Assembly: GCA_043800555.1 (NCBI GenBank)
Contig: JAZDMX010000026.1
Coordinates: 1-62,280, forward strand
DNA: 62,280 nucleotides
From: Candidatus Omnitrophota bacterium
Lineage (GTDB): Bacteria; Omnitrophota; Gorgyraeia; Gygaellales; Profunditerraquicolaceae
Reading direction: 5' to 3'
In this document: positions 445 through 21,711 of the stretch, one piece after another
Layout of the letters: every line of letters starts with the position of its first letter
Numbering within the stretch: the stretch's first letter is position 1
The notes under the pieces: generated by a model
Told to the model about the DNA's origin: nothing
The model's input: the letters and a program-made list of their open reading frames with translations, nothing else
Databases searched by the model: none
Program-made: the position numbers and the translations under genes

Positions 445-478
445 AAATAAAAAACCCTAAAAGGCTTTTTTAGGGTTT
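445..478 (-). terminator. Intrinsic terminator (minus-strand reading: AAACCCTAAAA loop TTTTAGGGTTT followed by TTTTTTATTTGG)
   Basis: An 11-bp perfect stem with a 5-nt loop and a U-rich tail on the minus strand. Confidence 0.6.
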
Positions 479-480
479 AT

Positions 481-668
481 CCCTTTGGCAACCCCGCTAC
501 CCCGCTTTTGGCGGGGCCGGAAGCTTTGCCCCTGCTCGTTAAGCACTTAGGCGCTTAACTTCGCAGGGCCCGCCAAAACTAAGCGCCATAAGCGCTCAGA
601 AAAGACGGGGCCCCAGCATTGCTGCTAGTTTGCCCTTTAACCAGGTCAAGCTACAATTTGTCAAAAAT
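481..668 (-). ncRNA. Candidate structured non-coding RNA or leader, unclassified
   Basis: About 190 nt bracketed by two minus-strand terminators. It is dense in nested inverted repeats: TTTTGGCGGGCC...GGCCCCGCCAAAA encloses CCTGC/GCAGG and GTTAAGC/GCTTAAC. There is an AGCGC-TTATG-GCGCT hairpin, and CCCCGC can pair with either of two tandem GCGGGG copies. No convincing ORF. Confidence 0.25.
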
Positions 669-705
669 CCGGCTTGGCTCACCATCCTTACCGGGCCAAG
701 CCGAG
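660..705 (-). terminator. Intrinsic terminator downstream of the CHAT-TPR gene
   Basis: Minus strand: CGGCTTGGC ... GCCAAGCCG, a 9-bp stem, followed by GATTTTTG. It lies about 50 nt after the stop codon at 757. Confidence 0.6.
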
Positions 706-756
706 TATCTGTATATCCACTTACAAAATAAGTATAACATATTTTCTAAGGCCTTG

Positions 757-2958
757 TCAAGACGGGCTGGTTAAGGCATCGATGCTTAAAATTTCTTCCT
801 TTACTTGCCGATAAGCTGAAAAATCGATTGCGCAATAAATTTCCTGGGCAAGGCGAAGGTATTCCTTGGCCTTATTCTTCTTCCCCGATTTTCTATAAAA
901 TAACCCCAGGTTGCGGAAGGCCGCGGCCAGCTCGGGTTGCAGCTGGATTTGTTTTGACAAATCAACGGCTTTTTTAAAACTCGCTTCGGCCTCGGCGTTC
1001 TTCTCCATCTCCATATAAAGCTCGCCGAGCATATTATAATCCGAGGCAAGGCTGAAATTATTGCCTTGCGCCTCATCGATTTTAAACCCAACCAAGTAGT
1101 AATCCAGGGCCTTCTGGTATTGTTTTTCGAATAGATACGCCTCTCCCAGGTTAAAATAGTAATCGCTGATTTCCTGCTTGGCATTCAATTTTTCCATGAT
1201 TAAGAGGCTCTTGCGGTAGAAATAGCGCGCCGAGTCAAAATCATTCTTGTCGCTAAAAAGCAGGCCGATATCAAAATAATCGCAAGCCAGGTTGTAGCGG
1301 TGTTCCTGCGAATATTGCCGTTCACGGTTGATTTCGGAACTTTTGGTCAAGAGCTCAAGCGCCAAATCGTATTCTTCTTTATCGATGTGCCAAACTGCCA
1401 GCCTGCGTATTGCTATGGCCTCATTGACTTTATCCCCATTCTTACGGGCTAAATCAAGCGCTTTATTATAGAAATCAAAGGCTTTGGGGTATTGGCCATC
1501 CGCCTGATAAAACCAGCCTATTTCAGCGTAACCGCCGCTTAAGCGTTTAAAATCATGCTTTTTCTCCGCTAAAAACGCATACTCAAAATAATATTTCAAG
1601 GCATTGGCCTTGTCTCCCATCCTGCGGTAAGAGGCGGCCAGGATCCGGTAAATATCGATCAATTTCGGGTCCTGCTTAATGACCCGATTGGCCAGGCGGA
1701 TAACCTCCCGGTTATTGCCTTGGGAAAATAACCGCCGCGATTTCAGGTATAAACCATAGGCATTCGGGTTAAGGGTTGGTAAAACCATGCCCAGGGATAA
1801 ACACGCCCCAAGGATAACCAAAGCAACCAAAGAGGGGACCAGCCATTTCTTGAATAATTTTATCTTATTCTTATATTTTATTATTTTAGCTCTTGGCTTG
1901 AACAGGGTAAAACCGGGATCTCCGTAAAGCAGGTAATTTGCCCAGTGCAGGGCCGTTATCCCGTATTCCTTAACCAGCTTAATCCTGGAGAGGCGGACGC
2001 TTTCGCCTACGCTTTTACCCAGGATCAGTTGATGATAGAATTCTTTCGCAAAATACAGGCCTGCGGGATCCTCAATCCTGCGGATTGCGCCGATGTAATG
2101 CCTTACTCCGGAAAATAAGAAAGCCCCGGCTATGGAATAATTCTTCTTTTGATAATCGCGCTCGACTGCCCCGGATAAACTGCTTCCTGCCGAATAACAC
2201 GCATTAGAAAATACCAGCGTGGGTAAAGGCCCGGCCTCGCCCATGCTCAGGATATCATAGATAGTAAGCCTTCCATCATCAAGCGCCCAACCGCTATTTT
2301 TTTGGTTGTGGGGATCGAATTCGCAATGGCCGGCAAAATGTATGATGTCATAATCGCAAATGTTTTTCTTCACATAGAGCCTGTTTATGCGGGTGGACTT
2401 AAAATCGGCATGGATCCCCGAATGCTTACGGTCAAACTGATTTTTGATATTTAACCCTTCCTGATAGGCGCATTTTAAATCGTTGGTAGGATTAGCTAAA
2501 ATCAGCATTTTAAGGGTATGCGCGCAGGCGCGGTATTGGAGGCGGACGCCCGGGTTCTTTGTCCTCACTAACCTTCCCATATTATATTTCAGGCATAAGA
2601 AATTAATGCCGTCATAGAGAAGTTCCCAAGGCACATCGATAAGCTCTTCGTCGATAACAAGCGCCAGGTTGGCTGATGGCGATACCCTTAACTGTTCTTT
2701 AGCCGGACGGCTAAAAATATGCTCCCAAAGGGCTTGGCCGGATTTCTGCAGGCCCTTTAACGCGAAAGAATCCTGGAGCCCGGATTTATTTAATACTGAG
2801 GCGATTTCCTGGGATAGGTTCTCAATTTCTTTGAAATTAACCTTATGCTGGCTATATTGTTTCAGGGTAGAGGCGCTGTCTTGCGGCGTAAATACGCTCA
2901 TCTTGAATAAATCGAGCTGCCGCATAATCTCTAAAACCAGGGTTTTTTCTTCCGGCAT
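757..2958 (-). CDS. CHAT-domain (caspase-like) peptidase with one transmembrane helix and a C-terminal TPR array
   Basis: 733-aa ORF. The N-terminal ~350 aa carry the CHAT hallmarks IIHFAGHCEF (His211), LVFSNACYSAG (Cys254) and WANYLLYGDP. The hydrophobic helix WLVPSLVALVILGACLSLGMVLP spans about aa 372-395. The C-terminal ~330 aa hold repeated TPR-like units such as A..YY..AL. and Y.KAL. Confidence 0.85.
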   Translation of the reverse strand: MPEEKTLVLEIMRQLDLFKMSVFTPQDSASTLKQYSQHKVNFKEIENLSQEIASVLNKSGLQDSFALKGLQKSGQALWEHIFSRPAKEQLRVSPSANLALVIDEELIDVPWELLYDGINFLCLKYNMGRLVRTKNPGVRLQYRACAHTLKMLILANPTNDLKCAYQEGLNIKNQFDRKHSGIHADFKSTRINRLYVKKNICDYDIIHFAGHCEFDPHNQKNSGWALDDGRLTIYDILSMGEAGPLPTLVFSNACYSAGSSLSGAVERDYQKKNYSIAGAFLFSGVRHYIGAIRRIEDPAGLYFAKEFYHQLILGKSVGESVRLSRIKLVKEYGITALHWANYLLYGDPGFTLFKPRAKIIKYKNKIKLFKKWLVPSLVALVILGACLSLGMVLPTLNPNAYGLYLKSRRLFSQGNNREVIRLANRVIKQDPKLIDIYRILAASYRRMGDKANALKYYFEYAFLAEKKHDFKRLSGGYAEIGWFYQADGQYPKAFDFYNKALDLARKNGDKVNEAIAIRRLAVWHIDKEEYDLALELLTKSSEINRERQYSQEHRYNLACDYFDIGLLFSDKNDFDSARYFYRKSLLIMEKLNAKQEISDYYFNLGEAYLFEKQYQKALDYYLVGFKIDEAQGNNFSLASDYNMLGELYMEMEKNAEAEASFKKAVDLSKQIQLQPELAAAFRNLGLFYRKSGKKNKAKEYLRLAQEIYCAIDFSAYRQVKEEILSIDALTSPS

Positions 2959-2963
2959 ATGGA

Positions 2964-3665
2964 TTAAGCCATAATTTCTAGAAATACCAAAGCAAGCCTT
3001 CCCTCCTGGCTAGTGGCCTCCAAAGTATATTTACCCGGTAAAACACGCTCAAAAGTAACCAAACCGGACTCGCTTAAATAGGATTCTAATTCCAGGCCAT
3101 CCCTGCTCAAAACTACCCTTAATCCTTTTAAAGCCCCTAAGCCTTGTTTGCGCCAAAGCCTAACCCAAGCATTAAAACACCCTTCCTTCTTATTCTCAAC
3201 TTTTAATTCCAAGCCTATGTCCTTAAAATCTTTTAATATGGTGACTTCATCTTCAAAATCTTTAATGTTACGGCTGCGCGCTAGCGGAGCAGCGACCAAT
3301 TCCTGGCCTATGAGTATATCCCCCGTGGAATTGATTATTTCAAGCATATTTTCTTTTAGCCTCAGGACCACTTCGAGAACGGGAAAATCCCGTTTTAAAT
3401 TAAATATTCTCCTTACCCTGTCAATTAGGCTTCCGGGCACCTCTTTTTGGCCGGCTGATCCGGCATTCAGGCTTAACGCCAGCGACTCCGCGCAGACCCG
3501 GCAATTAACCAGATGGTCCCTTGCCGATTCCATTTCCTTGTCCCCGAGTTTTCCTTCCAGAAAACAAGCCAAATCCTGCTCGTCAAGATGCGCTCCTTTG
3601 GGCCTTAAGCGCTTCTTGCGCCGTCCGTAAACCAGCTTAATTAAAGCCTCTATTTTGCCTTCCAT
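2964..3665 (-). CDS. Anti-sigma factor, zf-HC2 (ZAS) type, apparently soluble
   Basis: 233 aa. The N-terminus LACFLEGKL...DHLVNCRVCAE carries an HxxxCxxC motif (His51, Cys55, Cys58). I see no hydrophobic transmembrane segment. The C-terminus GLVTFERVLPGKYTLEA looks like a carboxypeptidase-regulatory-like beta-sandwich. The gene sits 37 nt after the sigma gene and 5 nt before the CHAT gene. Confidence 0.7.
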   Translation of the reverse strand: MEGKIEALIKLVYGRRKKRLRPKGAHLDEQDLACFLEGKLGDKEMESARDHLVNCRVCAESLALSLNAGSAGQKEVPGSLIDRVRRIFNLKRDFPVLEVVLRLKENMLEIINSTGDILIGQELVAAPLARSRNIKDFEDEVTILKDFKDIGLELKVENKKEGCFNAWVRLWRKQGLGALKGLRVVLSRDGLELESYLSESGLVTFERVLPGKYTLEATSQEGRLALVFLEIMA

Positions 3666-3702
3666 AGGGCAGTCCTCTCCTAGTATAATAGACGTTCTAA
3701 TC

Positions 3703-4311
3703 CTAAAAATCTAACTTAAGATTCTTTGCCTCAAAACAATCCCTTAACCTCTGTATGATCCTGGCTTTCTGCATATCAATAGCGCCGCGCGAAACCTTAA
3801 ATAGATCTTTTAAGGTTTCCAGCTTTATGCCGTGGTTAATATTCAATTCTATAAGCAGCTTGCTCTGGTTATTCAAGGCGCCTATGCAATCTTCCAGGCC
3901 CTTGAGCATCTCCTCCTGGTTGAGCAACTCGGGGATAGAGATTGAACCGTCGGCTAACGCGCCGCCAAGGCTTAAACCTTCCTCGTCTTGGGCATCAAGC
4001 GAAATTGCGTGCCTGCCTTTGCGCAAATGATCCAAGGTAAAATTTATGGCAACTTGCCTTAACCAACTGGCAAGGCTGCAGCCGTTTTTTGCCTTGAAGC
4101 TTTTTAATTTCTTGCAGTTGTCCTGGATTAGAAATACGAAGAAATCATGGAACAAGTCATCGCTGGAGTCCCGGGCCAAAGCAGGCCCGGATTTTGAATT
4201 TAATACGCTGCAGATGTATTTATATATAAGGCGGGAATAACGCTTTAAGAATTCATCCCGGGATTGGCCCTGCCCCCTGATGCATTGCTGGACGAAATCC
4301 AAATCATTCAC
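3703..4311 (-). CDS. ECF (group 4) sigma-70 family RNA polymerase sigma factor
   Basis: 202 aa. The N-terminal region-2-like stretch is DEFLKRYSRLIYKYI...FHDFFVFL. The C-terminal region-4 helix-turn-helix is LETLKDLFKVSRGAIDMQKARIIQRLR. The start codon is GTG. Confidence 0.8.
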   Translation of the reverse strand: MNDLDFVQQCIRGQGQSRDEFLKRYSRLIYKYICSVLNSKSGPALARDSSDDLFHDFFVFLIQDNCKKLKSFKAKNGCSLASWLRQVAINFTLDHLRKGRHAISLDAQDEEGLSLGGALADGSISIPELLNQEEMLKGLEDCIGALNNQSKLLIELNINHGIKLETLKDLFKVSRGAIDMQKARIIQRLRDCFEAKNLKLDF

Positions 4312-4368
4312 GCACCCAGTATATCACCCTTGCCTGTAAAAACAATAAAAAAAGCGCAAAAATGTAGA

Positions 4369-4437
4369 AAATAAAAGGGGACGTTTCTACTTTTCCCGCA
4401 CCTAAAGCCAGAAAAGTAGAAACGTCCCCTTTTATTT
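4369..4437. terminator. 27-bp perfect inverted repeat with a 15-nt loop; probable intrinsic (bidirectional) terminator after the TonB-like gene
   Basis: AAATAAAAGGGGACGTTTCTACTTTTC (4369-4395) pairs perfectly with GAAAAGTAGAAACGTCCCCTTTTATTT (4411-4437). It is T-rich on both sides. Confidence 0.6.
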
Positions 4438-4467: not shown

Positions 4468-5154
4468 TCACTCGACTTCAAAGGAAATAACCACGTTAAA
4501 GGAAAGCTGGGAATAATCCAGCTCTTTAGGGAACCTCGGGAAAGGAGCGGCATTTCTCACGCTGGCTAAAGCAATCTCCTTTAAGTAATCCGCTGCCCGG
4601 GATTTTTCTTCAACCAGGCGGTAATCGTTTAGGTAGCCGGAACTTGAAATTATAAAAGTTACATAAACCTCTCCGGTATCGCTGCGGTTATAGTTTTGAT
4701 AAGCAGACCTGCGGATCTTCTCGCGCACCACCTGGTAATAACTTATATAAGAAGGGTTGCCGATTTTAGCCAAATCAACCTCCGGTAGCGTAACTTTCTT
4801 CCTAATGGCGATTATGTCCGGCTTAGCCAGCAATGGTTTATCAAAAGTCATTTCTTTACGCATAGTTTGCGTATTAACCTTGGGGAGAGAAGCCCTGTCT
4901 ATAAAAGGCGGCGGGTTTCTTTTTTCCAGGTTGATCTTGCGCGATAAATCCAATAAAGGCTGGCTGCTGGCGGGGCTGACAGCCTTTTTTAAAACCGGGC
5001 TGCTGGCTTTAGGCGCCTTAATATAGTTTACCTCCATATTCCTGGCTTTGGCCTGTGGAGAAAAAAACAAATACCCCGGATTCTGGGTAACAACGGCTAT
5101 ATGCGCGGCAAAAGAAACAAAAAACGCTATTTGCAAGGTTCGGTTAGATAGCAT
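4468..5154 (-). CDS. TonB-family energy transducer (N-terminal anchor, Pro-rich linker, TonB C-terminal domain)
   Basis: 228 aa. The anchor is LQIAFFVSFAAHIAVV. The linker is rich in P, K and S. The C-terminus GEVYVTFIISSSGYL...AAPFPRFP is typical of the TonB_C fold. Confidence 0.75.
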   Translation of the reverse strand: MLSNRTLQIAFFVSFAAHIAVVTQNPGYLFFSPQAKARNMEVNYIKAPKASSPVLKKAVSPASSQPLLDLSRKINLEKRNPPPFIDRASLPKVNTQTMRKEMTFDKPLLAKPDIIAIRKKVTLPEVDLAKIGNPSYISYYQVVREKIRRSAYQNYNRSDTGEVYVTFIISSSGYLNDYRLVEEKSRAADYLKEIALASVRNAAPFPRFPKELDYSQLSFNVVISFEVE

Positions 5155-5225
5155 GGTCTTATATTAACATAAATTCCCGTTTTTGGAACCAAATTCCAAA
5201 CCCGCATTGGAATTGGCGGTAATTC

Positions 5226-7079
5226 TTAAAATTCGGCTTTCAGGCCTCCGGTAATCGAAAACCCGGGCATAGGATAACCCTGCATAACCTGGTATTTACG
5301 GTTTAAGAGGTTATCTATATAGGCAAAACAAGTTAAACCGTGCCTGAATTTCCTGGATACGCTAAGGCCTAAAACAAAGAAACTTTTAACTTTATTATAA
5401 TTAGCGGCATCGACAAATCTTACGCCTGTAAATTGGCTCTTCAGTTCAACTGTCAATCCGTTATAGTCATGGTATCTTAAGGCCGCGTCAATTTTATTTT
5501 TCGGCTGGTAGACGAGATATTTATGAGTATCATCGTCCCTGGCCATTAAGTACGTATAATTAATATCCAAATCAAGGGCTTCCAGAATAAAGAACTTATT
5601 TTTGAATTCTATCCCGTCGATTACCGCAGTACTGACATTCTCCGGCTGCGTCATCATGGTAACCGGATTGTAAGACCATTGGATAAGCTGCTTGTAATCG
5701 CTGCGGAAATACGTCAGTCCCGCCGTAAAATATTTATTGATTTTCGTTTCCAAGCCTAGCTCTCCCGATACCCCTTTTTCAGGCTTAAGGTTAGGATTTC
5801 CAATCATACCATCGGCGCTCGGCCAATATAGATCATTAAACGTAGGGACACGGTATGAGCGGCTAATTAAACCGTGGAATTTGACCGCGTCATTTAACTT
5901 ATAAAGAAAATCCAGACTAGGGTTAACTTGCGTATCGAAATTGGAGTAATCGTCAAGCCGTGCGCTCAAATTGACAATAAGTTTCTTATCGAATAAATCG
6001 AAACAGTTTTCCAGATATCCGGAGGTTACGCTATATTCATGCTTGGCGGTAGCCGTACTGTCATTCATATTTCTAACGTGATCAAGCCCCCCCACTAATC
6101 TGTAAACATCAAACAGCTGCTTATTGGCTTGCAGGCCGAACCCCCTTACAGTAGTAGCATGGATATCTTTTTGATTAGCCGGGTTCCAGCCATCAGAAGA
6201 ATTCTCCAGGAATTCAAGACGATCATAATTCTGGTAAGCTTTAACAGAAATGCCGTCTTGCGCATCCGGTTTAAAATTCCAGTTAAAATCAAAATACTGC
6301 TTAAGCATGTTTTGTTTATCGTCTGTATCGGGCCAGTTAGTTGAACCCGGCACGCCCTCTCTGCTTTTATAAAACCCGGAATTTAAACTTACCTTGTTTT
6401 CGTTATTAATATCATACCCTAATTTAAGGTTACAATCTTTAGCGTTAAACTCGGAATTCTGACGAAACCCTGCGGAACTCTGGTATTCTCCACTGGCAAG
6501 AAAACTAAATTTCGATACCTTTGCGCCATAAAGCATGCGCTCCACATAAGTCCGGGCAGTGCCGAAACTGGAATAAAGCTCAGCCTTCTGACCTTCTTTC
6601 GGAGGCTGTTTGGTAATAATATTAACTACGCCTCCCATTGCCGAACTGCCATAAAGGCTTGAGCCCGGTCCATGCACGACTTCTACCCTGGCTATATTAT
6701 CTAAAGGGATAGTGGATAGATCTACCGTTCCATCTCTTGGGCTATTTATTGGCCGGCCATCCATCAAAACCAAAACCTGGGCGGAAGTTGAGCCGCGCAT
6801 TCTAATATTTGTATTCGCCCCCGGACCCCCATAATTACTCATTTCAACCGATGTAAGGCTTGTCAAGGCATCGGCTAAATCCTGCGCTCCGCTACTTTGG
6901 ATTTCTCCAGAAGTAACTACATCTACTACTCGGCCGACATCTCCGGAAGACTCTTCTATTCTTGAGGGGGTGACTACGATTTTGTCCAGGTCAATATCTT
7001 CTGCGCGGGCAACACTTGAGAGGGCTACTAACAGTAGTGCGGGTATAAGCGATTTCCCAAAAATATTTTTCATTATCAA
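5226..7079 (-). CDS. btuB: TonB-dependent outer-membrane receptor, BtuB-like (cobalamin/corrinoid uptake inferred from the upstream riboswitch)
   Basis: 617 aa. It has a signal peptide ending ARA-ED, a TonB box DKIVVTPSR, a plug motif, and the terminal barrel strand GGLKAEF ending in Phe. A cobalamin riboswitch sits directly upstream. Confidence 0.75.
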   Translation of the reverse strand: MIMKNIFGKSLIPALLLVALSSVARAEDIDLDKIVVTPSRIEESSGDVGRVVDVVTSGEIQSSGAQDLADALTSLTSVEMSNYGGPGANTNIRMRGSTSAQVLVLMDGRPINSPRDGTVDLSTIPLDNIARVEVVHGPGSSLYGSSAMGGVVNIITKQPPKEGQKAELYSSFGTARTYVERMLYGAKVSKFSFLASGEYQSSAGFRQNSEFNAKDCNLKLGYDINNENKVSLNSGFYKSREGVPGSTNWPDTDDKQNMLKQYFDFNWNFKPDAQDGISVKAYQNYDRLEFLENSSDGWNPANQKDIHATTVRGFGLQANKQLFDVYRLVGGLDHVRNMNDSTATAKHEYSVTSGYLENCFDLFDKKLIVNLSARLDDYSNFDTQVNPSLDFLYKLNDAVKFHGLISRSYRVPTFNDLYWPSADGMIGNPNLKPEKGVSGELGLETKINKYFTAGLTYFRSDYKQLIQWSYNPVTMMTQPENVSTAVIDGIEFKNKFFILEALDLDINYTYLMARDDDTHKYLVYQPKNKIDAALRYHDYNGLTVELKSQFTGVRFVDAANYNKVKSFFVLGLSVSRKFRHGLTCFAYIDNLLNRKYQVMQGYPMPGFSITGGLKAEF

Positions 7080-7094
7080 TTCCTTTCCTCTTCT

Positions 7095-7240
7095 CCGAAA
7101 GTACTTTCCGTGCCTGCCGTAAGGCAGGGCTGATAAATGATCGTCCGGGCTCTCACTATAAGAAGCTTAGTGTATACCGTTGCGGGACAGCGCCTGGGCT
7201 TTCACCAGGCCTTCCTCCATTTATCCGGTTGCCAGTCTTT
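7095..7240 (-). promoter_or_regulatory. Cobalamin (B12) riboswitch upstream of the BtuB-like receptor
   Basis: Minus strand reads GGAGGAAGGCCTGGTGAAAGCCCAGGCGCTGTCCCGCAACGGTA, which matches the conserved core. A divergent B12-box-like GAGCCCGGACGATC...GCCCTGCC and the hairpin CCTGCCTTACGGCAGG follow. Confidence 0.7.
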
Positions 7241-7248
7241 AAGAAGTT

Positions 7249-7908
7249 TTAAGCGTATTTTTTAATATCTAAGAACCAATGTTTTCCAAACATTTCCCTT
7301 ACCGCGGATTCTGTCTCAATAATCTTGATCGGCTTGCTGAATATCGGCCCATCAACCACTAAGGTATGGAACTCTCCTTTCTCCCCGCAGGGGTCTATTC
7401 CAGGCGCTAACTCTTTTAAGAACTCTTTATCAATATTACGGCCCAGCCATTCTTCTCCAAGCAAGCCGGCTTTAGTGCTGACCACTATTGATTTAAAACC
7501 GGAGTTGATTATTTCCATGGCCAGTTCTTTTGAATCCCTTTCCCATAAAGGCAGTATGGCTTCTATCTTTAATTCCTTGCAGATTTTATCTATCCACTCT
7601 TTGTGCTCTTTAAGGTATATATCGCCAAAGACTACCCCCTGGATCCCCTCTTTTTCCTTCCATTCAGAGACCAGTTCTTTGAATTTCTCCGCGTAAGTTT
7701 CCTTGGGCATTGATCTTTGCACAAGAGGGATGCCGGTAAGCTCTGCCTGCCTGGCAATAAGTTCAGCAGGCAGGCCGTGGGACAATGAGTTTTTACCTTC
7801 AGTATCCGTGAAGTTAAATAAAGCCACAATATTATACCCGGAGTTTACGGCTTTGTAGCAGGCAAAGCAGCTGTCCTTGCCGCCGCTCCAGAGGCAGGCC
7901 ACTTTCAT
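7249..7908 (-). CDS. PP-loop ATP pyrophosphatase of the Dph6 / MJ0570 (diphthine-ammonia ligase-like) family
   Basis: 219 aa. The N-terminal PP-loop is CLWSGGKDSCFA and the family motif is GEKGEFHTLVVDGP. Its start overlaps the cobQ stop (ATGA at 7905-7908). Confidence 0.8.
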   Translation of the reverse strand: MKVACLWSGGKDSCFACYKAVNSGYNIVALFNFTDTEGKNSLSHGLPAELIARQAELTGIPLVQRSMPKETYAEKFKELVSEWKEKEGIQGVVFGDIYLKEHKEWIDKICKELKIEAILPLWERDSKELAMEIINSGFKSIVVSTKAGLLGEEWLGRNIDKEFLKELAPGIDPCGEKGEFHTLVVDGPIFSKPIKIIETESAVREMFGKHWFLDIKKYA

Positions 7909-9431
7909 CTAATCACCTCCTGTATATTTTTATCCAGTATCCTGTAAAGATAGGCAGTATCAATATTCTCCCGCGCCAGCTTTGCCAGTTTATCAATCTC
8001 TGCGTCAGGGTTAAAGGTTGTTTCTTGTGAGAGCGCCGGCCATCCTTTTTTAGCCCTTAACCTGTTTAAGAAATCCCTTCGGAAGGCAGCGGAGTCAAAT
8101 AACCCGTGAATATAGGTGCCTAATACGCGCCTTCCTTTACAGGCTATTCCGTCAGGGTATTTTACTTCTTTGCCGTTTCGTTGAAAAACTTCAAAAAACG
8201 GCTTGCAGTTGCCGGCACTTTTAGTAAGCCCATGATGGATCTCATATCCGCTTACCTCTTCTCCGGAGGCCGTATCTTTTGCTTTCAGGCGGTTCAGCTC
8301 CTTGTGCGGCATTAATCGCGTGCTTACAGGCAGAAGACCTAAGCCTTTGACCTTCCGGGAGCCTGATTCAATCGCGTGCTTGTCATAGATAATTTCACCC
8401 ATTATCTGGTAGCCGCCGCATATTCCCAGGATAACGGAATGCTTTTTTGAATTTGCATTTTCCAGTATTTTTCCGGCAAAACCGCTTTTATTCAGATAAG
8501 AAAGGTCCGTAATGGTGCTTTTTGTCCCGGGAATGATCAGCATATCCGGTTTTCCTAATCCTTCAGGCCTGTTAACATAGCGTAATTTAACGTCAGGCTC
8601 TGCTGCCAGGGGGTCAAAATCCGTAAAATTAGAAATATGCGGCAGGTAGATAACTGCGATGTCAAGTTTCCGGCGCTTCCTTTCAGAAGGGCGGGCAGTG
8701 AAGTTATCCAGGGGCACCGCGTCTTCCTCCGGGATTGATATGCCTCTGAAGTAAGGGATAACCCCCAGCACCTTGATCCCCGTTCGTTTTTCAAGCCATC
8801 TTAGCCCGGGGACTAGAAGGGTTTTGTCTCCCCGGAATTTATTAATGATAAAACCCTTGATCATCCTCCGCTCGCTATTATTGAGAAGCTCAAGCGTCCC
8901 CACCAGTGAGGCGAATACCCCTCCCTTGTCAATATCGCCAACCAAAATAACCGGCGCCTTGGCGTAGCGGGCCATTTTTATATTGACGATGTCGTGTGAC
9001 TTTAAATTTATTTCGGCGGGGCTGCCTGCGCCTTCGATGACCACGGCTTCGTATTTTTTGCTTAAGGCGTCAAAAGACCTTCTCACCACCGGGAGGAGTT
9101 TGGCTTTGTAACGCGTATAATTACGGGCATTCATATTCCCGAGCGGCGAGCCCCGGACTATGACTTGCGCGCCGGTGTCGCTAGCCGGCTTGAGTAAAAC
9201 CGGGTTCATATCCACGTGGGGCTCAATGCGGCAGGCCAACGCCTGGGTTGCCTGCGCGCGGCCGATTTCTCCCCCCTGCCTGGTGACAAAAGAATTCAAG
9301 GCCATGTTCTGCGCCTTAAACGGGCAAACCTTATAGCCATCCTGCAAAAATATCCTGCAGAGAGCGCTGACAATTACGCTTTTACCGACACCTGAACCGG
9401 TCCCGCAAATTTGTATGGCCCTGGCCTTCAT
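7905..9431 (-). CDS. cobQ: Cobyric acid synthase
   Basis: 508 aa. The N-terminal P-loop domain carries GTGSGVGKS. The C-terminal glutamine amidotransferase domain carries GICGGYQIMG and YEIHHG. Confidence 0.9.
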   Translation of the reverse strand: MKARAIQICGTGSGVGKSVIVSALCRIFLQDGYKVCPFKAQNMALNSFVTRQGGEIGRAQATQALACRIEPHVDMNPVLLKPASDTGAQVIVRGSPLGNMNARNYTRYKAKLLPVVRRSFDALSKKYEAVVIEGAGSPAEINLKSHDIVNIKMARYAKAPVILVGDIDKGGVFASLVGTLELLNNSERRMIKGFIINKFRGDKTLLVPGLRWLEKRTGIKVLGVIPYFRGISIPEEDAVPLDNFTARPSERKRRKLDIAVIYLPHISNFTDFDPLAAEPDVKLRYVNRPEGLGKPDMLIIPGTKSTITDLSYLNKSGFAGKILENANSKKHSVILGICGGYQIMGEIIYDKHAIESGSRKVKGLGLLPVSTRLMPHKELNRLKAKDTASGEEVSGYEIHHGLTKSAGNCKPFFEVFQRNGKEVKYPDGIACKGRRVLGTYIHGLFDSAAFRRDFLNRLRAKKGWPALSQETTFNPDAEIDKLAKLARENIDTAYLYRILDKNIQEVIR

Positions 9432-10162
9432 TGAATGGCAAAGCAGGAAAAAAGCACGAGCGTTTCGCTAATCTCGCTGGTTGCTCCGATAGTATCTCCG
9501 GTCAAACCGCCGATTTTCTTGCTTATGAACCGGTTGATTAAATAAGTTGCCGCCGCCACTATTGCCCAAATTAACAATCCCTTAAAAGGCAAGCTCAATA
9601 GCACTACCGCTAAGGTAATTGCCGTCGCCCGGAAGAATACCCCCGGGTTTGATTCCCGCATATAGGCCCTGGCTTTTCCCTCCTTCCTGGCATAGGCAAA
9701 ATTAGAGAGAGAAAATACCATTGACCAACGGCTTAAAACACACATCAAAATCAAAGCATCCGGCCTCAGGGCTTTGCCGATTGAATACAAAAGGCCGATT
9801 TTTAAAAGTATTACGCATACTAAACTCAATACGCCCAATGAACCTGCGCGCGGGTCGCGCATAATATCGAGCATCTCTTCTTTGGGTTTACCGCTTAAAA
9901 AGGCATCGGCACTGTCACAAAGGCCGTCTAAATGCATGCCGCCGGTAATAACAACCAAAGAAACTATCAAAATTATACTTGAGGCAAGAATAGGCGCATT
10001 CAAGGCCGATATGATAAAGTTTACTCCCAGAAGAAGCAAACCGATAAATAAGCCGGCAAGCGGGAAATACGCCGCTGAACCAGAGAGGCCCTTCTGGCCA
10101 ATATCTTTGATTTTAAGCGGGATAACGGTCAAAAACTGAACGGCCAATAAAAAACCCTTCAT
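9428..10162 (-). CDS. cobS: Adenosylcobinamide-GDP ribazoletransferase (cobalamin synthase)
   Basis: 244-aa polytopic membrane protein. It has FLTVIPLK at the N-terminus and the DGLCD and GGLTGD motifs. It overlaps cobT and cobQ by 4 nt each. Confidence 0.9.
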   Translation of the reverse strand: MKGFLLAVQFLTVIPLKIKDIGQKGLSGSAAYFPLAGLFIGLLLLGVNFIISALNAPILASSIILIVSLVVITGGMHLDGLCDSADAFLSGKPKEEMLDIMRDPRAGSLGVLSLVCVILLKIGLLYSIGKALRPDALILMCVLSRWSMVFSLSNFAYARKEGKARAYMRESNPGVFFRATAITLAVVLLSLPFKGLLIWAIVAAATYLINRFISKKIGGLTGDTIGATSEISETLVLFSCFAIQ

Positions 10163-11217
10163 TTATTCTTCTCCGAAACGTTGGCGCTCTGGAAAGTGGC
10201 CATTTGAGTAAGGATCTTTACCGCCGCATCGGCCAAAGCTATGGCTAAAGCCCCTCCTGTCCCTTCTCCTAATCTTAAATTCAAGTCTAAAAGCGGCCTT
10301 AAACCGATATGCTCCAAGATAAACTTATGCCCGCTCTCCACCGAGCAATGCGCGGCAATCATATATTCTTTGACCTTAGGCTCAAGGCGATAGGCGATTA
10401 AGGCGGCTGCGCCGGAAATAAAACCGTCAATGACCACAGGCACCTTTCTTGCCGCGGAAGCCAAAATTATTCCGGCTAACCCTCCGATTTCGAATCCACC
10501 CACTTTTGCCAATACATCGACCGGATCCAGCGGATCAGGATTATTCAAGGCTAAGGATTTCTTGATTACAGCTATTTTATTATTCAGGCCTTTATCGTCG
10601 AGCCCGGCGCCCCTGCCGGTTATCTCCTCGATTGACTTTTTAGTAAAACAGGCGGTTATGGCGCTAGCGGCTGTAGTATTACCTATGCCCATTTCTCCGG
10701 TCCCTGCGATATCGATGCCTTTTTCATATTCGTTTTCGAATATCTCAAAACCCGCGCAAATCGATCTTATCGCTTCTTCCCTGGCCATTGCCGGGCCCTT
10801 GGCCATATTCTTAGTTCCATAATTTATTTTCTTAACCAAAAGCTTCGGGTTTGGCTTAAGCTCAACGCAAACTCCCAAATCCGCCACTACCACTCTTGCG
10901 CCTGCATGCGCGGCTAGGACATTTATCCCCGCCCCGCCGCTCAAGAAATTATAAACCATCTGCGCGGTGACCTCCTTAGGATAGGCGCTCACCCCTTCTT
11001 CGGTAACTCCATGGTCGGCAGCCAGCGTAAAAATTACTTTGTTTTTTAATGCCGGCCCTAATTTAGCGGTTATCCCGCAGACCTGCCTGGCCAGCTCTTC
11101 CAACCTGCCCAGGCTTCCCAGGGGCTTAGTCAAATTATCCAGCCTCTTTTGGGCCTTTTGGATAATCACGGGGTCAATCTCGCAGATTCTTCCGGCAATC
11201 TCATCGATTCTTTTCAT
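10159..11217 (-). CDS. cobT: Nicotinate-nucleotide--dimethylbenzimidazole phosphoribosyltransferase
   Basis: 352 aa with the motifs GEMGIGNTTAASA and LRLGEGTGGA. Confidence 0.9.
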   Translation of the reverse strand: MKRIDEIAGRICEIDPVIIQKAQKRLDNLTKPLGSLGRLEELARQVCGITAKLGPALKNKVIFTLAADHGVTEEGVSAYPKEVTAQMVYNFLSGGAGINVLAAHAGARVVVADLGVCVELKPNPKLLVKKINYGTKNMAKGPAMAREEAIRSICAGFEIFENEYEKGIDIAGTGEMGIGNTTAASAITACFTKKSIEEITGRGAGLDDKGLNNKIAVIKKSLALNNPDPLDPVDVLAKVGGFEIGGLAGIILASAARKVPVVIDGFISGAAALIAYRLEPKVKEYMIAAHCSVESGHKFILEHIGLRPLLDLNLRLGEGTGGALAIALADAAVKILTQMATFQSANVSEKNK

Positions 11218-11754
11218 TTACTCTTCTCCTGGCCTGCTTTGCTTTAGCGTTAAGGGAATCCCTGAAGCGATAAATAGGACCTCATCGGATTCTTGCGCTA
11301 CAATCCGGTTTATTTTACCGGCGATGTCGCGAAAACGCCGCGCCAGCTTATTAGCCGGGACTATTCCCAAACCTACCTCATTGGAAACTATGATTGCTTT
11401 TGCTTTTCTCTTTCTAAGCTGAAGTAAAGACGCCTTGATTTTATCCGCGATCAGCTGGTCTTTACAACCCGACAAAAGAAGGTTAGAAACTAAAAGCGTA
11501 AGGCAATCAATAATGATGCAGTCAAATGGCCCATCCAGCTTAGCTAATAACCCGGCTAACTCCTTTGGCTCCTCAAAAGTTTTCCAGTTATCCGGCCGGG
11601 CTGCTTTGTGTTCCAGGATACGCTCCTCCATTTCCTGGTCTAAGCCTTCTCCGGTAGCGATAAACGCTACGCCTTTTGAGCCTTTTGCCAAATTCAAAGC
11701 CTGCGTGCTCTTTCCGCTCCTTGCTCCCCCCAGAATCAAAGTTATCTTACCCAC
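11218..11754 (-). CDS. cobU: Bifunctional adenosylcobinamide kinase / adenosylcobinamide-phosphate guanylyltransferase
   Basis: 178 aa with the P-loop GGARSGKS and a SNEVGLGIVP motif. It abuts the cobT start. Confidence 0.85.
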   Translation of the reverse strand: MGKITLILGGARSGKSTQALNLAKGSKGVAFIATGEGLDQEMEERILEHKAARPDNWKTFEEPKELAGLLAKLDGPFDCIIIDCLTLLVSNLLLSGCKDQLIADKIKASLLQLRKRKAKAIIVSNEVGLGIVPANKLARRFRDIAGKINRIVAQESDEVLFIASGIPLTLKQSRPGEE

Positions 11755-11806
11755 TGGCCTCCTTAGCCGAGAACGCTTTCAGATTAAAACAAAAGGCGCC
11801 CCCTGT

Positions 11807-12406
11807 TTATTTTAAATGTTTTGTTTCGTTAAATTCCCTTATTTTAGGCTGGTTATCCTTATATTCAATAACAGTCAAACTAGCCCCCTTAGGCACATAA
11901 CGCCAGAAATTTTTCCTTTTCAGGATGCTACAAACCAATGCGCTGATTACCCCCCCGTGGCAAACTATCGCCACTTCTCTGCCGGGGTTTTTCCGGACGA
12001 TCCCTTCGATCCCCCGGCTTACTCTCTTGTTAAACACATCCATTGATTCGGCCTTAGGGATACAACCCTGGTAGGGGTCCTTTATCCATCTCCTATAAAC
12101 GGTTGGATACTTTATCATAATCTCTTTATGGCGCAACCCTTCAAGGACCCCAAAATTGATCTCTCTTAATGAAGAGGCCCGGACAATTTCGGCTTTATTA
12201 AACACTATGCCGGCTGTCTGGAGGGCGCGTAACCTGTCGCTGGAATAAATTCTATCGAATTTGACGCCTTTTAAACGCTTAGCCAGAAGCTTTGCTTGCG
12301 CCCTTCCTTCCCGGCTTAAAGCCACATCCTTGCAGCCGCAATAACGGCCCGCTTTGTTCCAGCGGGTTATGCCATGGCGGATTAAAGTAAGGCGGGTAAT
12401 TTTCAT
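11807..12406 (-). CDS. cobC: Alpha-ribazole phosphatase (histidine phosphatase family)
   Basis: 199 aa with the catalytic motif LIRHGIT and a later HGG motif. It sits inside the cob operon. Confidence 0.75.
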   Translation of the reverse strand: MKITRLTLIRHGITRWNKAGRYCGCKDVALSREGRAQAKLLAKRLKGVKFDRIYSSDRLRALQTAGIVFNKAEIVRASSLREINFGVLEGLRHKEIMIKYPTVYRRWIKDPYQGCIPKAESMDVFNKRVSRGIEGIVRKNPGREVAIVCHGGVISALVCSILKRKNFWRYVPKGASLTVIEYKDNQPKIREFNETKHLK

Positions 12407-13191
12407 ATTTCTTTAGGCACTAAGACCACATTCGGCTTTCCCGTAACAGGATTATCGTTAACCAATACGATTGTTTTATATACCGACTCTATATTCTTAT
12501 AAGTAAGCACTTCTTCGGGGCTGCCTTCCTTGAATATCCTCCCGTTATCCAACAGGCAGATCCGGTTGCAATAGGCGCTGGCAAGGTTTAAATCATGTAA
12601 AACCATAACAACGGTCAGGTTATTCTCGCGGTTAAATTTTCTCAACAGGTCCATTACCTGTATCTGATGGCCTATATCAAGATGCGAAGTCGGCTCATCT
12701 AGCAGCAAAAGGACAGGCTCTTGCGCCAAGGCCCGGGCGATAAGCACCCTTTGGCGTTCGCCGGCGCTTAGCTCATCGACCATCTTGCCTTTTAAGCTTT
12801 GCGAGCCGGTTAACAAAAGCGAGTTCTCGGCAATCCCGATATCCTTTTTGGTTTCAAACTGCAGCCTTTTCAAATGCGGGATCCTCCCCATCAAAACCAG
12901 CTCCATCACGCTAAATGAAAAACCGGCGGATATATCTTGAGCGACAAAGGCCGCCTTACGGCAAAACTCCTTTAAGCTCATATCAAAGATATCCTTACCG
13001 TCAAAATAAACCCTGCCCTTGCGGGGGCATAAGGCCTTGGAGCATAACCTAAGCAGCGTGGTTTTACCCGAACCGTTCGGGCCGATAATCCCGATAAAAT
13101 CACCGGCGGAAACATTCAAAGAGACGCCCTTAATGATATCTTCCTTAGAGTAACCGGCGCTTAAACTATCAATTCTTAATAATGGTCTCAT
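12403..13191 (-). CDS. btuD: ABC transporter ATP-binding protein, BtuD/FepC type
   Basis: Walker A GPNGSGKTT, signature LSAGERQR, Walker B LLLLDEP. I moved the start to the Met at MRPLLRIDSL, which forms an ATGA overlap with the permease stop. The longer ORF to 13308 runs inside the permease gene. Confidence 0.8.
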   Translation of the reverse strand: MRPLLRIDSLSAGYSKEDIIKGVSLNVSAGDFIGIIGPNGSGKTTLLRLCSKALCPRKGRVYFDGKDIFDMSLKEFCRKAAFVAQDISAGFSFSVMELVLMGRIPHLKRLQFETKKDIGIAENSLLLTGSQSLKGKMVDELSAGERQRVLIARALAQEPVLLLLDEPTSHLDIGHQIQVMDLLRKFNRENNLTVVMVLHDLNLASAYCNRICLLDNGRIFKEGSPEEVLTYKNIESVYKTIVLVNDNPVTGKPNVVLVPKEI

Positions 13192-14984: not shown

Positions 14985-15198
14985 AAAGGCCCGAACCGGC
15001 ATTTCTGCCTAGGTCGGGCTTCACCCTGATAATATTATGGCCCATTCCACGAGGCGGTTCTTCTTATAGGCAGGTCTTCTGGCTTAGGGCTTATTCCTCT
15101 TACGGCCTTCCCGGTTTGTTAACCAGTGGCTTTGTAAGTATTGCTTGCCCATTACAGCGGCGGGACCGCATCAGCATCTAACTGATTTCCCTAACCTA
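14985..15198 (-). promoter_or_regulatory. Cobalamin (B12) riboswitch with a terminator-type expression platform
   Basis: Minus strand reads AGGGAAATCAG...GATGCGGTCCCGCCGCTGTAATGGG...AAGCCACTGG...CCGGGAAGGC...AGCCAGAAGACCTGCC, a canonical B12 box. The hairpin GCCCGACC...GGTTCGGGC plus CTTTTGTTT follows, just before the btuF ATG. Confidence 0.85.
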
Positions 15199-15218
15199 TA
15201 ATATATAATTTCTATTTT

Positions 15219-20391: not shown

Positions 20392-21711
20392 TTAAGCCTC
20401 CTCCCACGACAAAGTTATATAATCTCCGGTAGTGGGATAAAACGGGGGCGGCGTAGTAAGCATCCTGGAATCATACTTATAATTTTTAGAGTAACCGGTT
20501 AATTTCTGGCCGGTAATCCCGTTAAAAGTCCCCACTGGCCCGCGCTGGTCCTGAATAATCCCCCCATAAACAGTTAAAGTCCCCTTTGCCGAGCCTGTCC
20601 ACCAATTCTCAAGCATAAAGGAAGTGCTTAAAGCCATTACCGAAGCATCAATCTCAAGGTTATAAGGAGCGCTGCCGGAAACAACTACATCGCTTTCAGA
20701 AATAAGCCCCAGCATATCCCCGGAAGAAGGATTCAGGCGGGGGTCATTGGCGTAAAGGAGATTGCCGGAGATTATTATATCCTGGCTTGAGCCGGCAGTA
20801 AGCCTTCCGCTTAGGGTCCCGGAAATAGTCAAATTTCCGCTATCTACAAAAAGCGCGCCGTTTGACGGAAGAGGCTGGCTTGTCAGGGTACAGCAACTAT
20901 TGCATTTTCCCGTGCAATGAGCGTTATAATAACCGGTATTAGTAATATTCATAGTGCCTTCGGAATTCAAGGCAATAGTTGTATTGCCGGTTAAGCTCAA
21001 CCCGCCGCTTAATGCAGAAGCGCTGCGCAAATAGGTTGCCTTCATAGGCATATTAATAGAATCAACCCCAAGATTCAGGCCGGCGTTAAAAGCCGGCGTA
21101 TCATACGGAGGATTGCTAGCGTTGCTGGATGTAATATTCCTGCCGTTGTTATAATAATTAATTTTGTCGCTGACGGATTCTACAACGCCGTCAAAAACCG
21201 GGCCCGGATTATTGCCGGCTATATTCAATTGGTCATTGGTATGCGTCGGCCCATCCAAATGGTCCTGGTTCCAAAACCAGACATTTGTATTAGCGTAGTT
21301 CTCCCCGTCGGTAAACCAAATATAGCGGGCATAATTATCAACCTGAAGCATATTAACCAGCGTTTGGGCCGTCAGGTTTGCGGTAGTGCCTACGGAAACG
21401 ACCTTATACCTGCGCATAGTCCCATACAAACCCAAGTCGGCGATCGTAACGCTATAAGTGCCGACCGGTGAAAGCCCCCCGGAAAAGTTGCCTGCCGAGC
21501 CACCCCTTAACCGGTCCAGGGCTTTATCAAGCCCTGCTTCAGCAAGGTTAAAAGCCTGCGTCTTGACCTTAAAAAGGCTGGCGGCCTTATTTTGGCCGAT
21601 ACTGGCATTGACAAAAGTAACCGCAAAAACAATCAACACCGCTATTACAAGATAGGCCGCGATAAGAGCGATTCCTTTCTGGCTATCCTTCAAACTAATC
21701 ACCCCTCTCAT
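20392..21711 (-). CDS. PilX/GspK-like minor (pseudo)pilin with a large Gly/Asn/Ser/Thr-rich C-terminal domain
   Basis: 439 aa. The N-terminus KGIALIAAYLVIAVLIVF lacks the G-F-T-x-x-E processing motif, as is typical of PilX/GspK. The C-terminus holds repetitive G/N/S/T-rich segments and a Cys cluster, HCTGKCNSCC. Confidence 0.6.
   Translation of the reverse strand: MRGVISLKDSQKGIALIAAYLVIAVLIVFAVTFVNASIGQNKAASLFKVKTQAFNLAEAGLDKALDRLRGGSAGNFSGGLSPVGTYSVTIADLGLYGTMRRYKVVSVGTTANLTAQTLVNMLQVDNYARYIWFTDGENYANTNVWFWNQDHLDGPTHTNDQLNIAGNNPGPVFDGVVESVSDKINYYNNGRNITSSNASNPPYDTPAFNAGLNLGVDSINMPMKATYLRSASALSGGLSLTGNTTIALNSEGTMNITNTGYYNAHCTGKCNSCCTLTSQPLPSNGALFVDSGNLTISGTLSGRLTAGSSQDIIISGNLLYANDPRLNPSSGDMLGLISESDVVVSGSAPYNLEIDASVMALSTSFMLENWWTGSAKGTLTVYGGIIQDQRGPVGTFNGITGQKLTGYSKNYKYDSRMLTTPPPFYPTTGDYITLSWEEA

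Follow-up and report, generated by a model that had tools for sequence, protein, structure and literature searches.

A conserved sigma/anti-sigma/CHAT-TPR module in Candidatus Omnitrophota as a candidate protease-gated sigma switch

We analysed a 62,280-nucleotide (nt) stretch of contig JAZDMX010000026.1 (hereafter the window) from a Candidatus Omnitrophota bacterium, whose close homologues all derive from Candidatus Omnitrophota metagenome-assembled genomes. Three adjacent minus-strand genes in this window encode a sigma factor of the extracytoplasmic function (ECF) kind, a soluble anti-sigma factor and a membrane protein that joins a caspase-fold CHAT domain to a tetratricopeptide repeat (TPR) array. 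Bacterial signalling has its "third pillar" in ECF sigma factors, and what switches on each of their groups is often obscure. The sigma/anti-sigma/CHAT locus is a real, strongly conserved three-gene module, and a fairly probable explanation of the whole is a protease-gated ECF switch, in which the membrane protein would free the sigma factor by cutting the anti-sigma factor. The three genes are:

4311..3703, minus strand: ECF sigma factor, 202 amino acids (aa), GTG start
3665..2964, minus strand: soluble anti-sigma factor, 233 aa
2958..757, minus strand: CHAT-transmembrane-TPR protein, 733 aa

Reading of the open reading frames (ORFs) bore out the arrangement first described for this locus, three co-directional genes with intergenic gaps of 37 nt (sigma/anti-sigma) and 5 nt (anti-sigma/CHAT-TPR). 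A scan of one genome per GTDB species gave 64 loci with an anti-sigma orthologue; wherever the contig allows, the sigma gene lies directly upstream and the CHAT-transmembrane-TPR gene directly downstream on the same strand, locus L051 being the sole exception. Sigma orthologues occupy the same position in 63 loci with 36–68% identity to the window protein, anti-sigma orthologues share 36–54% identity, and the full CHAT-TPR orthologues share 46–74% (CHAT domain 46–70%, TPR domain 48–74%), so that, judged by sequence identity, the protease is the best conserved of the three proteins. Across the phylum the synteny is kept, with a single locus per genome.

Distant CHAT homologues (~30–43% identity) were checked on their contigs. 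All nine loci that combine CHAT with one transmembrane segment (L065 from Nitrospirota, L068 from Desulfobacteraceae, and L069–L075) carry an anti-sigma homologue directly upstream (hmmsearch E 1e-12 to 1e-41), which matches over its whole length in eight of them and is shortened by the contig end in L075. The anti-sigma stop and CHAT start often overlap in these loci, a sigma gene precedes the anti-sigma gene wherever the contig allows, and the ectodomains differ. The one soluble cyclase-CHAT locus examined (L067) has neither a sigma nor an anti-sigma homologue upstream. Co-conservation of the trio, a check proposed with the original prediction, held in the 64 Omnitrophota genomes (except L051) and in the nine distant loci. 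As a separate observation, in L051 (6294–9405) the adjacent riboswitch is also gone, and a gene for a secreted BNR-like protein directly follows the anti-sigma gene.

The third gene encodes the proposed protease, whose parts map as follows:

1918..2748, minus strand: CHAT domain (Pfam PF12770), residues 71–347
2328..2326 and 2199..2197, minus strand: catalytic codons of His211 (FAGH211) and Cys254 (NAC254)
1771..1839, minus strand: transmembrane helix, residues 374–396 (Kyte-Doolittle 2.33), with a Lys/Arg-rich stretch before it
760..1746, minus strand: TPR array, residues 405–733, matching many Pfam TPR families (TPR_12 E 4.6e-31)

PF12770 is matched over the whole model at 101.9 bits (cut-off 24; E 5.8e-29), and His and Cys stand at the dyad positions of the CHAT family. 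H207, G210, H211 and C254, along with a few more residues, do not vary among 71 family members reaching down to 24% identity. For the dyad comparison, a CHAT-only profile was aligned to solved CHAT structures: His211 aligns with H585 of Scalindua Csx29 (Sb-Csx29), and Cys254 with C627 of Csx29 and C907 of DdvA, residues that are catalytic in those proteins (PMC9729208, PMC11506125). The position of the dyad in a proper CHAT alignment, a test named beforehand, was found to coincide with the catalytic residues of Csx29 and DdvA, and the other features claimed for this gene (one transmembrane helix and a TPR array beside the FAGH211/NAC254 dyad) were confirmed. An AlphaFold2 (AF2) model of the full protein has a mean predicted local distance difference test (pLDDT) score of 91.8, with 17 TPR helices above 90. 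When this full-length model was searched with Foldseek, TPR proteins dominated the list, and the best non-TPR structural match was Csx29 in the Craspase-Csx30 complex (8eey_B, E 2.6e-8, ranks 42 and 49). A full-length profile search of the PDB was likewise dominated by TPR matches, and a single-sequence search of PDB sequences with the CHAT domain gave no useful match. Asp297 was considered as the equivalent of separase D2151, which recognizes Arg at P1 (K670 in Sb-Csx29), and was rejected: a motif-based alignment puts it four residues off.

Because the CHAT protein has no N-terminal signal peptide, exactly one hydrophobic segment is present in 51 of 53 full-length orthologues, and Lys plus Arg residues are in excess before this segment (median 7 in the preceding 20 residues versus 3 after it), the CHAT domain is predicted to be cytoplasmic and the TPR domain periplasmic. 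Such an arrangement would allow a protease in the cytoplasm to act on a soluble anti-sigma factor. The TPR array is a putative sensor or partner-binding domain; distant homologues carry in its place two discoidin (F5/8 type C) domains, DUF4384 or a CsgG/LpoB-like domain, types characteristic of the cell envelope. The combination of a constant cytoplasmic enzyme with one helix and a variable ectodomain suggests the layout of a transmembrane sensor. Among the close relatives of the CHAT domain, those of L067 (6001–7749, P0180) and P0207 are fused to an adenylate/guanylate cyclase and have neither a transmembrane helix nor sigma/anti-sigma neighbours; they adjoin genes for TPR, CsgG-like, Toluene_X and Glucodextran_B-like proteins. 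All of these but the TPR gene recur beside the trio in L068, and two of them (CsgG-like and Glucodextran_B-like) do so in L072.

The anti-sigma protein carries the zinc motif H51-x3-C55-x2-C58, together with H26 and C34. H26, H51, C55 and C58 are invariant in 117 orthologues and C34 is conserved in at least 90%; the motif lies in a small helical N-terminal domain (helices predicted at residues 29–68), as expected of a zinc anti-sigma (ZAS) domain. No transmembrane segment was found in the window protein (best 19-residue hydropathy 1.0), and the early description of a HxxxCxxC protein free of membrane helices thus stands. PF13490 (zf-HC2) is precomputed on many orthologues, and homologues are annotated as zf-HC2 or anti-sigma factor; Pfam searches with the window protein gave nothing at E <= 0.1. 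Of the domains to be sought with profile hidden Markov models, CHAT, TPR and Sigma70_r2 were recovered in the window, and zf-HC2 was recovered on many orthologues only. The best PDB sequence matches of the anti-sigma profile are weak and are both class I anti-sigma domains (DdvA N-terminus, E 0.031; RsiW, E 0.2), and a search at E <= 10 found no Csx30 chain in the PDB. An AF2 model from 117 sequences (mean pLDDT 74.7) is helical as far as residue 68, disordered in a linker at 68–92 and folded as a beta-sandwich at 96–232 (pLDDT 85–92), which suggests a soluble two-domain anti-sigma factor in which N-terminal ZAS helices are linked to a C-terminal beta-sandwich. Foldseek returned generic Ig/FnIII-like beta-sandwich matches only for this model (E > 2e-3). 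An exhaustive profile search at E <= 1e-10 divides the family into 495 clusters (50% identity), and among the matches listed nearly all full-length members are 220–250 aa long.

Conservation in this family is strongest in the beta domain and not in the sigma-binding part. In a set of 122 full-length representatives (19–55% identical to the window protein), conservation reaches 99% at the zinc ligands, and a single residue, in the beta domain, is 100% invariant:

3276..3278, minus strand: Arg130 codon, in the loop A-P-L-A-R-S-R

Arg130 is also invariant in a cross-phylum alignment, stands family-wide in the context [hydrophobic]-[L/F/M]-R-[S/G/A]-[R], and coincides with a local dip in model confidence. 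Proteases of clan CD are strict as to the P1 residue, which for separase is Arg (PMC9729208). In view of this strictness and of the invariance of the residue, we propose Arg130 as the candidate P1 residue, with the cut between R130 and S131 in a beta-domain loop.

The first gene was described from the outset as an ECF sigma factor, and profile searches agree: the protein matches TIGR02937 (sigma70-ECF) over residues 17–192 at 56.4 bits (cut-off 42.9), which places it among the ECF (group 4) factors, and Sigma70_r2 at 24.2 bits (cut-off 24). None of the specific ECF subfamily models reached its cut-off with this protein, and the type III-E RpoE model NF041236 scored 23.5 bits against a cut-off of 100. 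Group ECF54 was considered as a home for this sigma factor, since CHAT, subtilase and carboxypeptidase proteins occur in its context, and was rejected: ECF54 is found in Actinobacteria and lacks an anti-sigma factor (PMC8999054, PMC7826278). Two promoters were recognized in the module, one before the sigma gene and one before the anti-sigma gene:

4318..4345, minus strand: sigma-70-type promoter of the sigma gene, TTGTTT (4345..4340), 16 nt, TG-extended -10 element TGaTATACT (4326..4318)
3687..3715, minus strand: ECF-type bipartite promoter GTTAGATT-N13-CGTCTATT, a perfect match

The -10 element of the first promoter ends 6 nt before the GTG start. Of 60 loci, 53 have a TATAAT-like hexamer shortly before the sigma start (ending 6–9 nt before it in 51 of these), 45 show the TG extension, and only 4 have a Shine-Dalgarno (SD)-like sequence. 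Because the -10 element abuts the start codon and SD sequences are rare, the sigma gene is predicted to be read by the housekeeping sigma factor as a leaderless mRNA. The GTG start of the window gene is unusual for such an mRNA.

The second promoter has the family-wide form GTTAGATT-N13-(A/G)CGTCTATT. Its -35 half lies within the last sigma codons (L-D-F-stop), and its -10 half is followed by the SD sequence AGGAGAGG and the anti-sigma start. The motif stands 43–58 nt before the anti-sigma start in 52 loci; in 35 loci it stands 44–250 nt before the gene of a secreted Sortilin/BNR-like protein, which is located downstream of CHAT. The loci searched total 729,527 bp and yield 97 matches at a spacing of exactly 15, compared to 1.08 in shuffles, and other spacings give 0–1 each. 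The copy before the anti-sigma gene is the only one in the window, where a search allowing up to 3 mismatches found no other; the distant locus L074 has three copies, one before the anti-sigma gene and two before genes that follow the CHAT gene. With its conserved CGTC in the -10 half and its fixed spacing the motif looks like an ECF promoter, and its position and ECF-like architecture make it most likely the cognate promoter of the trio's sigma factor, driving the anti-sigma and CHAT-TPR genes. Were it cognate, the anti-sigma factor and protease would be under sigma-dependent feedback, and the BNR-like protein would be a regulon member.

Several further observations concern the genes around this motif. 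At least 41 loci encode, downstream of the trio, the secreted Sortilin/BNR-like protein (~516 aa, with a C-terminal coiled-coil-like region), and in ~30 of them a thioredoxin gene follows (in L003, BNR-like gene 11545–13095 and thioredoxin gene 13163–13501); the counterpart for the window would lie beyond its left edge. A cyclic di-GMP (c-di-GMP) riboswitch also precedes the BNR-like gene in some genomes, where both signals may be integrated. On the opposite strand, a GTTAGA-N15-CGTC motif occurs upstream of the sigma gene in L020, L036, L041 and L055; in L041 (7177–7201, minus strand) it fronts a 163-aa IS200/RAYT-like transposase ORF (6672–7163, minus strand), identified by eye.

Put together, these features fit a switch of the following kind. 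The ECF sigma factor would be made constitutively, from the housekeeping-type promoter and as a leaderless mRNA, and would be held inactive by the soluble two-domain anti-sigma factor. The CHAT-TPR protein would act as a one-component transmembrane sensor-protease, with its TPR ectodomain in the periplasm and its caspase-fold CHAT domain in the cytoplasm. Most likely an envelope or protein-ligand signal at the ectodomain would activate the CHAT domain, which would then cut the anti-sigma factor, putatively after the invariant Arg130 in its beta-domain loop. The freed sigma factor would transcribe from the bipartite promoters, thereby feeding back on the anti-sigma and protease genes and turning on the secreted Sortilin/BNR-like gene. 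Proteases of the CHAT and Lon types that cut sigma-binding proteins encoded next to them provide a precedent for the proposed cleavage: Craspase cuts Csx30 (PMC9729208), and DdvA joins an anti-sigma domain to TPR-CHAT (PMC11506125).

A number of points weigh against this protease-gated switch. We infer both the contact between CHAT domain and anti-sigma factor and the cleavage; Arg130 may be structural instead of scissile; the predicted topology derives from the positive-inside rule alone; and the motif is assigned to the trio's sigma factor by position and ECF-like architecture. The CHAT profile alignments are weak (E 7.5e-5 to 0.1, and 0.03–0.1 for those that place the dyad), yet they are mutually consistent and agree with the Pfam match. 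Finally, in L051 the sigma and anti-sigma genes are kept but no CHAT gene adjoins them, and co-transcription from a sigma-dependent promoter would be equally expected if the CHAT protein were a mere member of the regulon.

The last two points lead to the strongest alternative, which we regard as unlikely: the CHAT-TPR protein would belong to the sigma factor's output, not regulate it, and would as a membrane protease cut something other than the anti-sigma factor (for example proteins of the envelope, of division or of the cell surface), and the anti-sigma factor would be controlled otherwise. HetF of Anabaena is such a membrane-associated CHAT protease, with substrates in cell division and differentiation; like the trio protein it has an N-terminal cytoplasmic CHAT domain, and to our knowledge it has not been linked to a sigma/anti-sigma pair. 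A weak NCBIfam similarity of the CHAT protein to HetF (E 0.0074) is in keeping with this alternative, as are the example of L051 and the location of the anti-sigma and CHAT genes behind an ECF-type promoter, which makes the CHAT protein at least a regulon member. The pairing of a two-domain anti-sigma factor with a transmembrane-type CHAT protein, however, persists across phyla while ectodomain and flanking genes change, and therefore indicates a direct functional partnership. Furthermore, the most conserved part of the anti-sigma factor is the beta domain, which is not the part that binds sigma.

Such a partnership could also be non-proteolytic. The beta-sandwich would then bind the CHAT domain in the cytoplasm, and a signal received by the TPR array would alter this docking, freeing the sigma factor uncut in a manner resembling partner switching. 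The C-terminal domain of the anti-sigma factor, conserved and without known function, and the co-conservation of anti-sigma and CHAT proteins would suit this arrangement, which we nevertheless consider improbable: the His/Cys dyad and its surrounding motifs are invariant in a family that diverges to 24% identity, and catalysis thus appears to be under selection.

Still less probable is an anti-sigma factor that, like RsrA or ChrR, senses redox state or zinc and releases sigma upon Cys oxidation, with the CHAT protein incidental. Invariance of HxxxCxxC in the 117 Omnitrophota orthologues, a weak similarity to NCBIfam TIGR03988 (RsrA, E 0.031) and the thioredoxin gene near many of the loci speak for it. 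In the cross-phylum alignment, by contrast, three distant members (L070, L071 and L073) have lost the zinc ligands while keeping Arg130, the beta domain and the CHAT partner, so that zinc or redox sensing is unlikely as a common trigger. Many ZAS anti-sigma factors, moreover, are not redox sensors.

The genomic setting bears on the original prediction's suggestion of a phage alarm. The window holds rpoB/rpoC, fusA, tuf, secY, cobT, cobQ and a cobalamin riboswitch, with genes for a TonB-like protein and a TonB-dependent receptor adjoining the trio, and is core chromosome. As that prediction had stated, neither a CRISPR array nor a cas gene was found in the window (its sole ORFs above 1100 aa are rpoB and rpoC), and a search of the three proteins against PADLOC-DB 2.0 gave a generic TPR model (E 2.1e-7) and two marginal matches at E ~0.004. 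A phage-defence or abortive-infection alarm, the equivalent of Craspase-Csx30-RpoE triggered at the membrane, shares the component logic of type III-E loci and of DdvA, controller of a defence island (PMC9729208, PMC11506125), and genes of helicase-like, Schlafen-like or AAA type adjoin some of the distant loci, but the core chromosomal site, the phylum-wide single-copy synteny, the generic PADLOC result, the missing CRISPR array and a conserved predicted regulon of envelope type, with its secreted BNR-like protein, make it very unlikely.

As a candidate protease-gated ECF switch, the trio is outside the Craspase, DdvA and regulated intramembrane proteolysis (RIP) families. Its nearest precedent is DdvS/DdvA of Myxococcus xanthus, an ECF sigma factor and a transmembrane anti-sigma factor with a periplasmic TPR-CHAT region (PMC11506125), which displaces Craspase, the parallel drawn originally. 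Both systems combine an ECF sigma factor, a zinc-type N-terminal anti-sigma domain, a single transmembrane helix, TPRs and a CHAT domain with an intact dyad, and for both, sigma release is proposed to begin with a CHAT protease. DdvA, however, is a single polypeptide (ZAS-TM-TPR-CHAT, TM being the transmembrane helix), an architecture that the trio does not have: ZAS and CHAT are split onto separate proteins, the anti-sigma factor is soluble with an extra beta-sandwich, and the membrane protein runs in the reversed order CHAT-TM-TPR, with CHAT predicted to be cytoplasmic and not periplasmic. The mechanism proposed for DdvA is self-cleavage followed by RseP intramembrane proteolysis, whereas the trio would need no site-2 protease step. 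DdvA also controls a CBASS (cyclic-oligonucleotide-based anti-phage signalling system)/CRISPR island and is narrowly distributed; the trio lies in a core region and is found phylum-wide.

Type III-E CRISPR systems encode Craspase (Cas7-11/gRAMP-Csx29) with Csx30, Csx31 and RpoE (PMC9729208, PMC10028731), and Craspase cleaves Csx30 bound to RpoE (PMC9729208). Like the trio, they place together a TPR-CHAT caspase-fold protease, a soluble sigma-binding protein (Csx30, the substrate) and an ECF-like sigma factor. Neither set of type III-E markers is found here: Cas7-11 and a CRISPR array are absent from the trio locus, the sigma factor falls below the NF041236 cut-off for RpoE and the anti-sigma factor shows no similarity to Csx30. 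Type III-E systems are activated by RNA, whereas the trio would be activated via a transmembrane ectodomain; and Csx29 cuts after Leu or Met, whereas the candidate residue in the trio is an invariant Arg.

In the classical RIP systems DegS/RseP-RseA-sigmaE and PrsW/RasP-RsiW-sigmaW, an envelope signal leads to anti-sigma proteolysis and release of an ECF sigma factor that feeds back on the anti-sigma gene. There, the anti-sigma factor spans the membrane and is cut by at least two separate proteases in sequence; in the trio the protease would span the membrane and the anti-sigma factor, which lacks the transmembrane helix of the RseA/RsiW type (maximum 19-residue hydropathy 1.0), is soluble. 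The trio protease is of the caspase fold, unlike the serine or metallo proteases of classical RIP. CalpL-CalpT-CalpS, as cited in bioRxiv 10.1101/2024.05.08.593092, is a type III CRISPR system in which a SAVED-Lon protease activated by cyclic tetra-adenylate (cA4) cuts an anti-sigma factor. On that description it resembles the trio in that a soluble anti-sigma factor is cut by a dedicated signal-activated protease to free an ECF-like sigma factor, and differs in its Lon-type protease, cyclic oligoadenylate signal and CRISPR linkage. A full-text literature search for CHAT with anti-sigma or ECF returned DdvA, Craspase, type III CRISPR, an ECF review and one unrelated paper, and the split, inverted architecture was not found among them.

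More tentatively, and with slightly less than even confidence, we propose that the trio belongs to a new class of switch governed by a "one-component caspase-like sensor-protease", in which a variable periplasmic ectodomain would govern a cytoplasmic CHAT domain that cuts a soluble anti-sigma factor after an invariant Arg and so releases an ECF sigma factor; the class would occur in several phyla and form a core, phylum-wide envelope-sensing circuit in Omnitrophota. If this is true, the class spans ~500 anti-sigma sequence clusters in those phyla. Should the protease-gated model hold, it would add a wiring in which the protease and not the anti-sigma factor crosses the membrane, and one caspase-fold enzyme would replace the multi-protease cascade of classical RIP. 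Craspase/Csx30/RpoE and DdvA would then be members of a wider family of sigma switches that CHAT proteases control independently of CRISPR. Omnitrophota are ultra-small bacteria with a host-contact lifestyle, to which such a circuit, having a defined promoter and a BNR-like secreted protein as its target, would possibly be tied. For this uncultured phylum the model makes concrete predictions: the dyad His211/Cys254, the candidate scissile Arg130, the promoter consensus and a BNR/Sortilin-like regulon member.

The borders of the module are marked by the following features:

4369..4437, minus strand: 27-bp perfect hairpin (arms 4437..4411 and 4395..4369) with a 15-nt loop, then a T-rich run
731..760, minus strand: sigma-70-type promoter TTGACA-18-TATACT (11 of 12 matches, with TG), overlapping the CHAT stop
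661..704, minus strand: downstream hairpin 704..669 plus U5 run (-22.2 kcal/mol, z -3.3)
452..644, minus strand: c-di-GMP-I-type aptamer with terminator 478..452 (RF01051, 37 bits, gathering 35)

The 27-bp upstream hairpin, reported from the first reading and present as described, terminates the TonB-like gene and bounds the module on its upstream side; in L005, L010 and L053, too, similar GGGGACG(T/G)TTC hairpins precede the sigma gene. Long hairpins of the form GGGGACG(T/G)TTCTA...TAGAA(A/C)CGTCCCC, or GGGACACCC...GGGTGTCCC, recur between genes of different Omnitrophota genomes, and may be a shared terminator type or a repetitive extragenic palindromic (REP)-like element. Downstream, the promoter at 760..731 starts the next unit, a c-di-GMP riboswitch leader, and a TTGACA-18-TATACT promoter also follows the CHAT gene in L001, L003–L007, L009, L010, L013, L018, L019, L028, L032 and L044. 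This leader contains the downstream hairpin, an insertion that two close relatives, L005 and L007, lack at the corresponding spot. The idea of a self-contained operon between two terminators holds in part, both hairpins being real; it is modified by the internal ECF-type promoter and by the next-unit promoter that overlaps the CHAT stop.

The riboswitch is a neighbouring unit outside the trio, and a unit of this type comes behind the CHAT gene in many loci. Its aptamer in the window is weak, carrying insertions and standing barely above the Rfam threshold. An Rfam scan of nine related loci located strong c-di-GMP-I copies (59–66 bits) in five, each immediately behind the CHAT gene and sharing its strand:

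L001 11087–11175: c-di-GMP-I copy
L003 10982–11062: c-di-GMP-I copy
L005 10989–11090: c-di-GMP-I copy
L007 6900–6978: c-di-GMP-I copy
L028 11070–11164: c-di-GMP-I copy

The copy in L008 (71 bits) lies further downstream on the opposite strand. Between riboswitch and BNR-like gene, L005 has a 394-aa ORF (11770–12954) whose C-terminus appears by eye to be tail-fibre/intramolecular-chaperone-like. Elsewhere in the window, a 439-aa ORF (20392..21711, minus strand) has no Pfam match at E <= 1e-5, and the cobalamin riboswitch (103 bits; 15052..15214, minus strand) lies upstream of a minus-strand block (4468..11217) of cobT-like, cobQ, diphthamide-synthase-like, TonB-dependent receptor and TonB-like genes that ends just before the trio.

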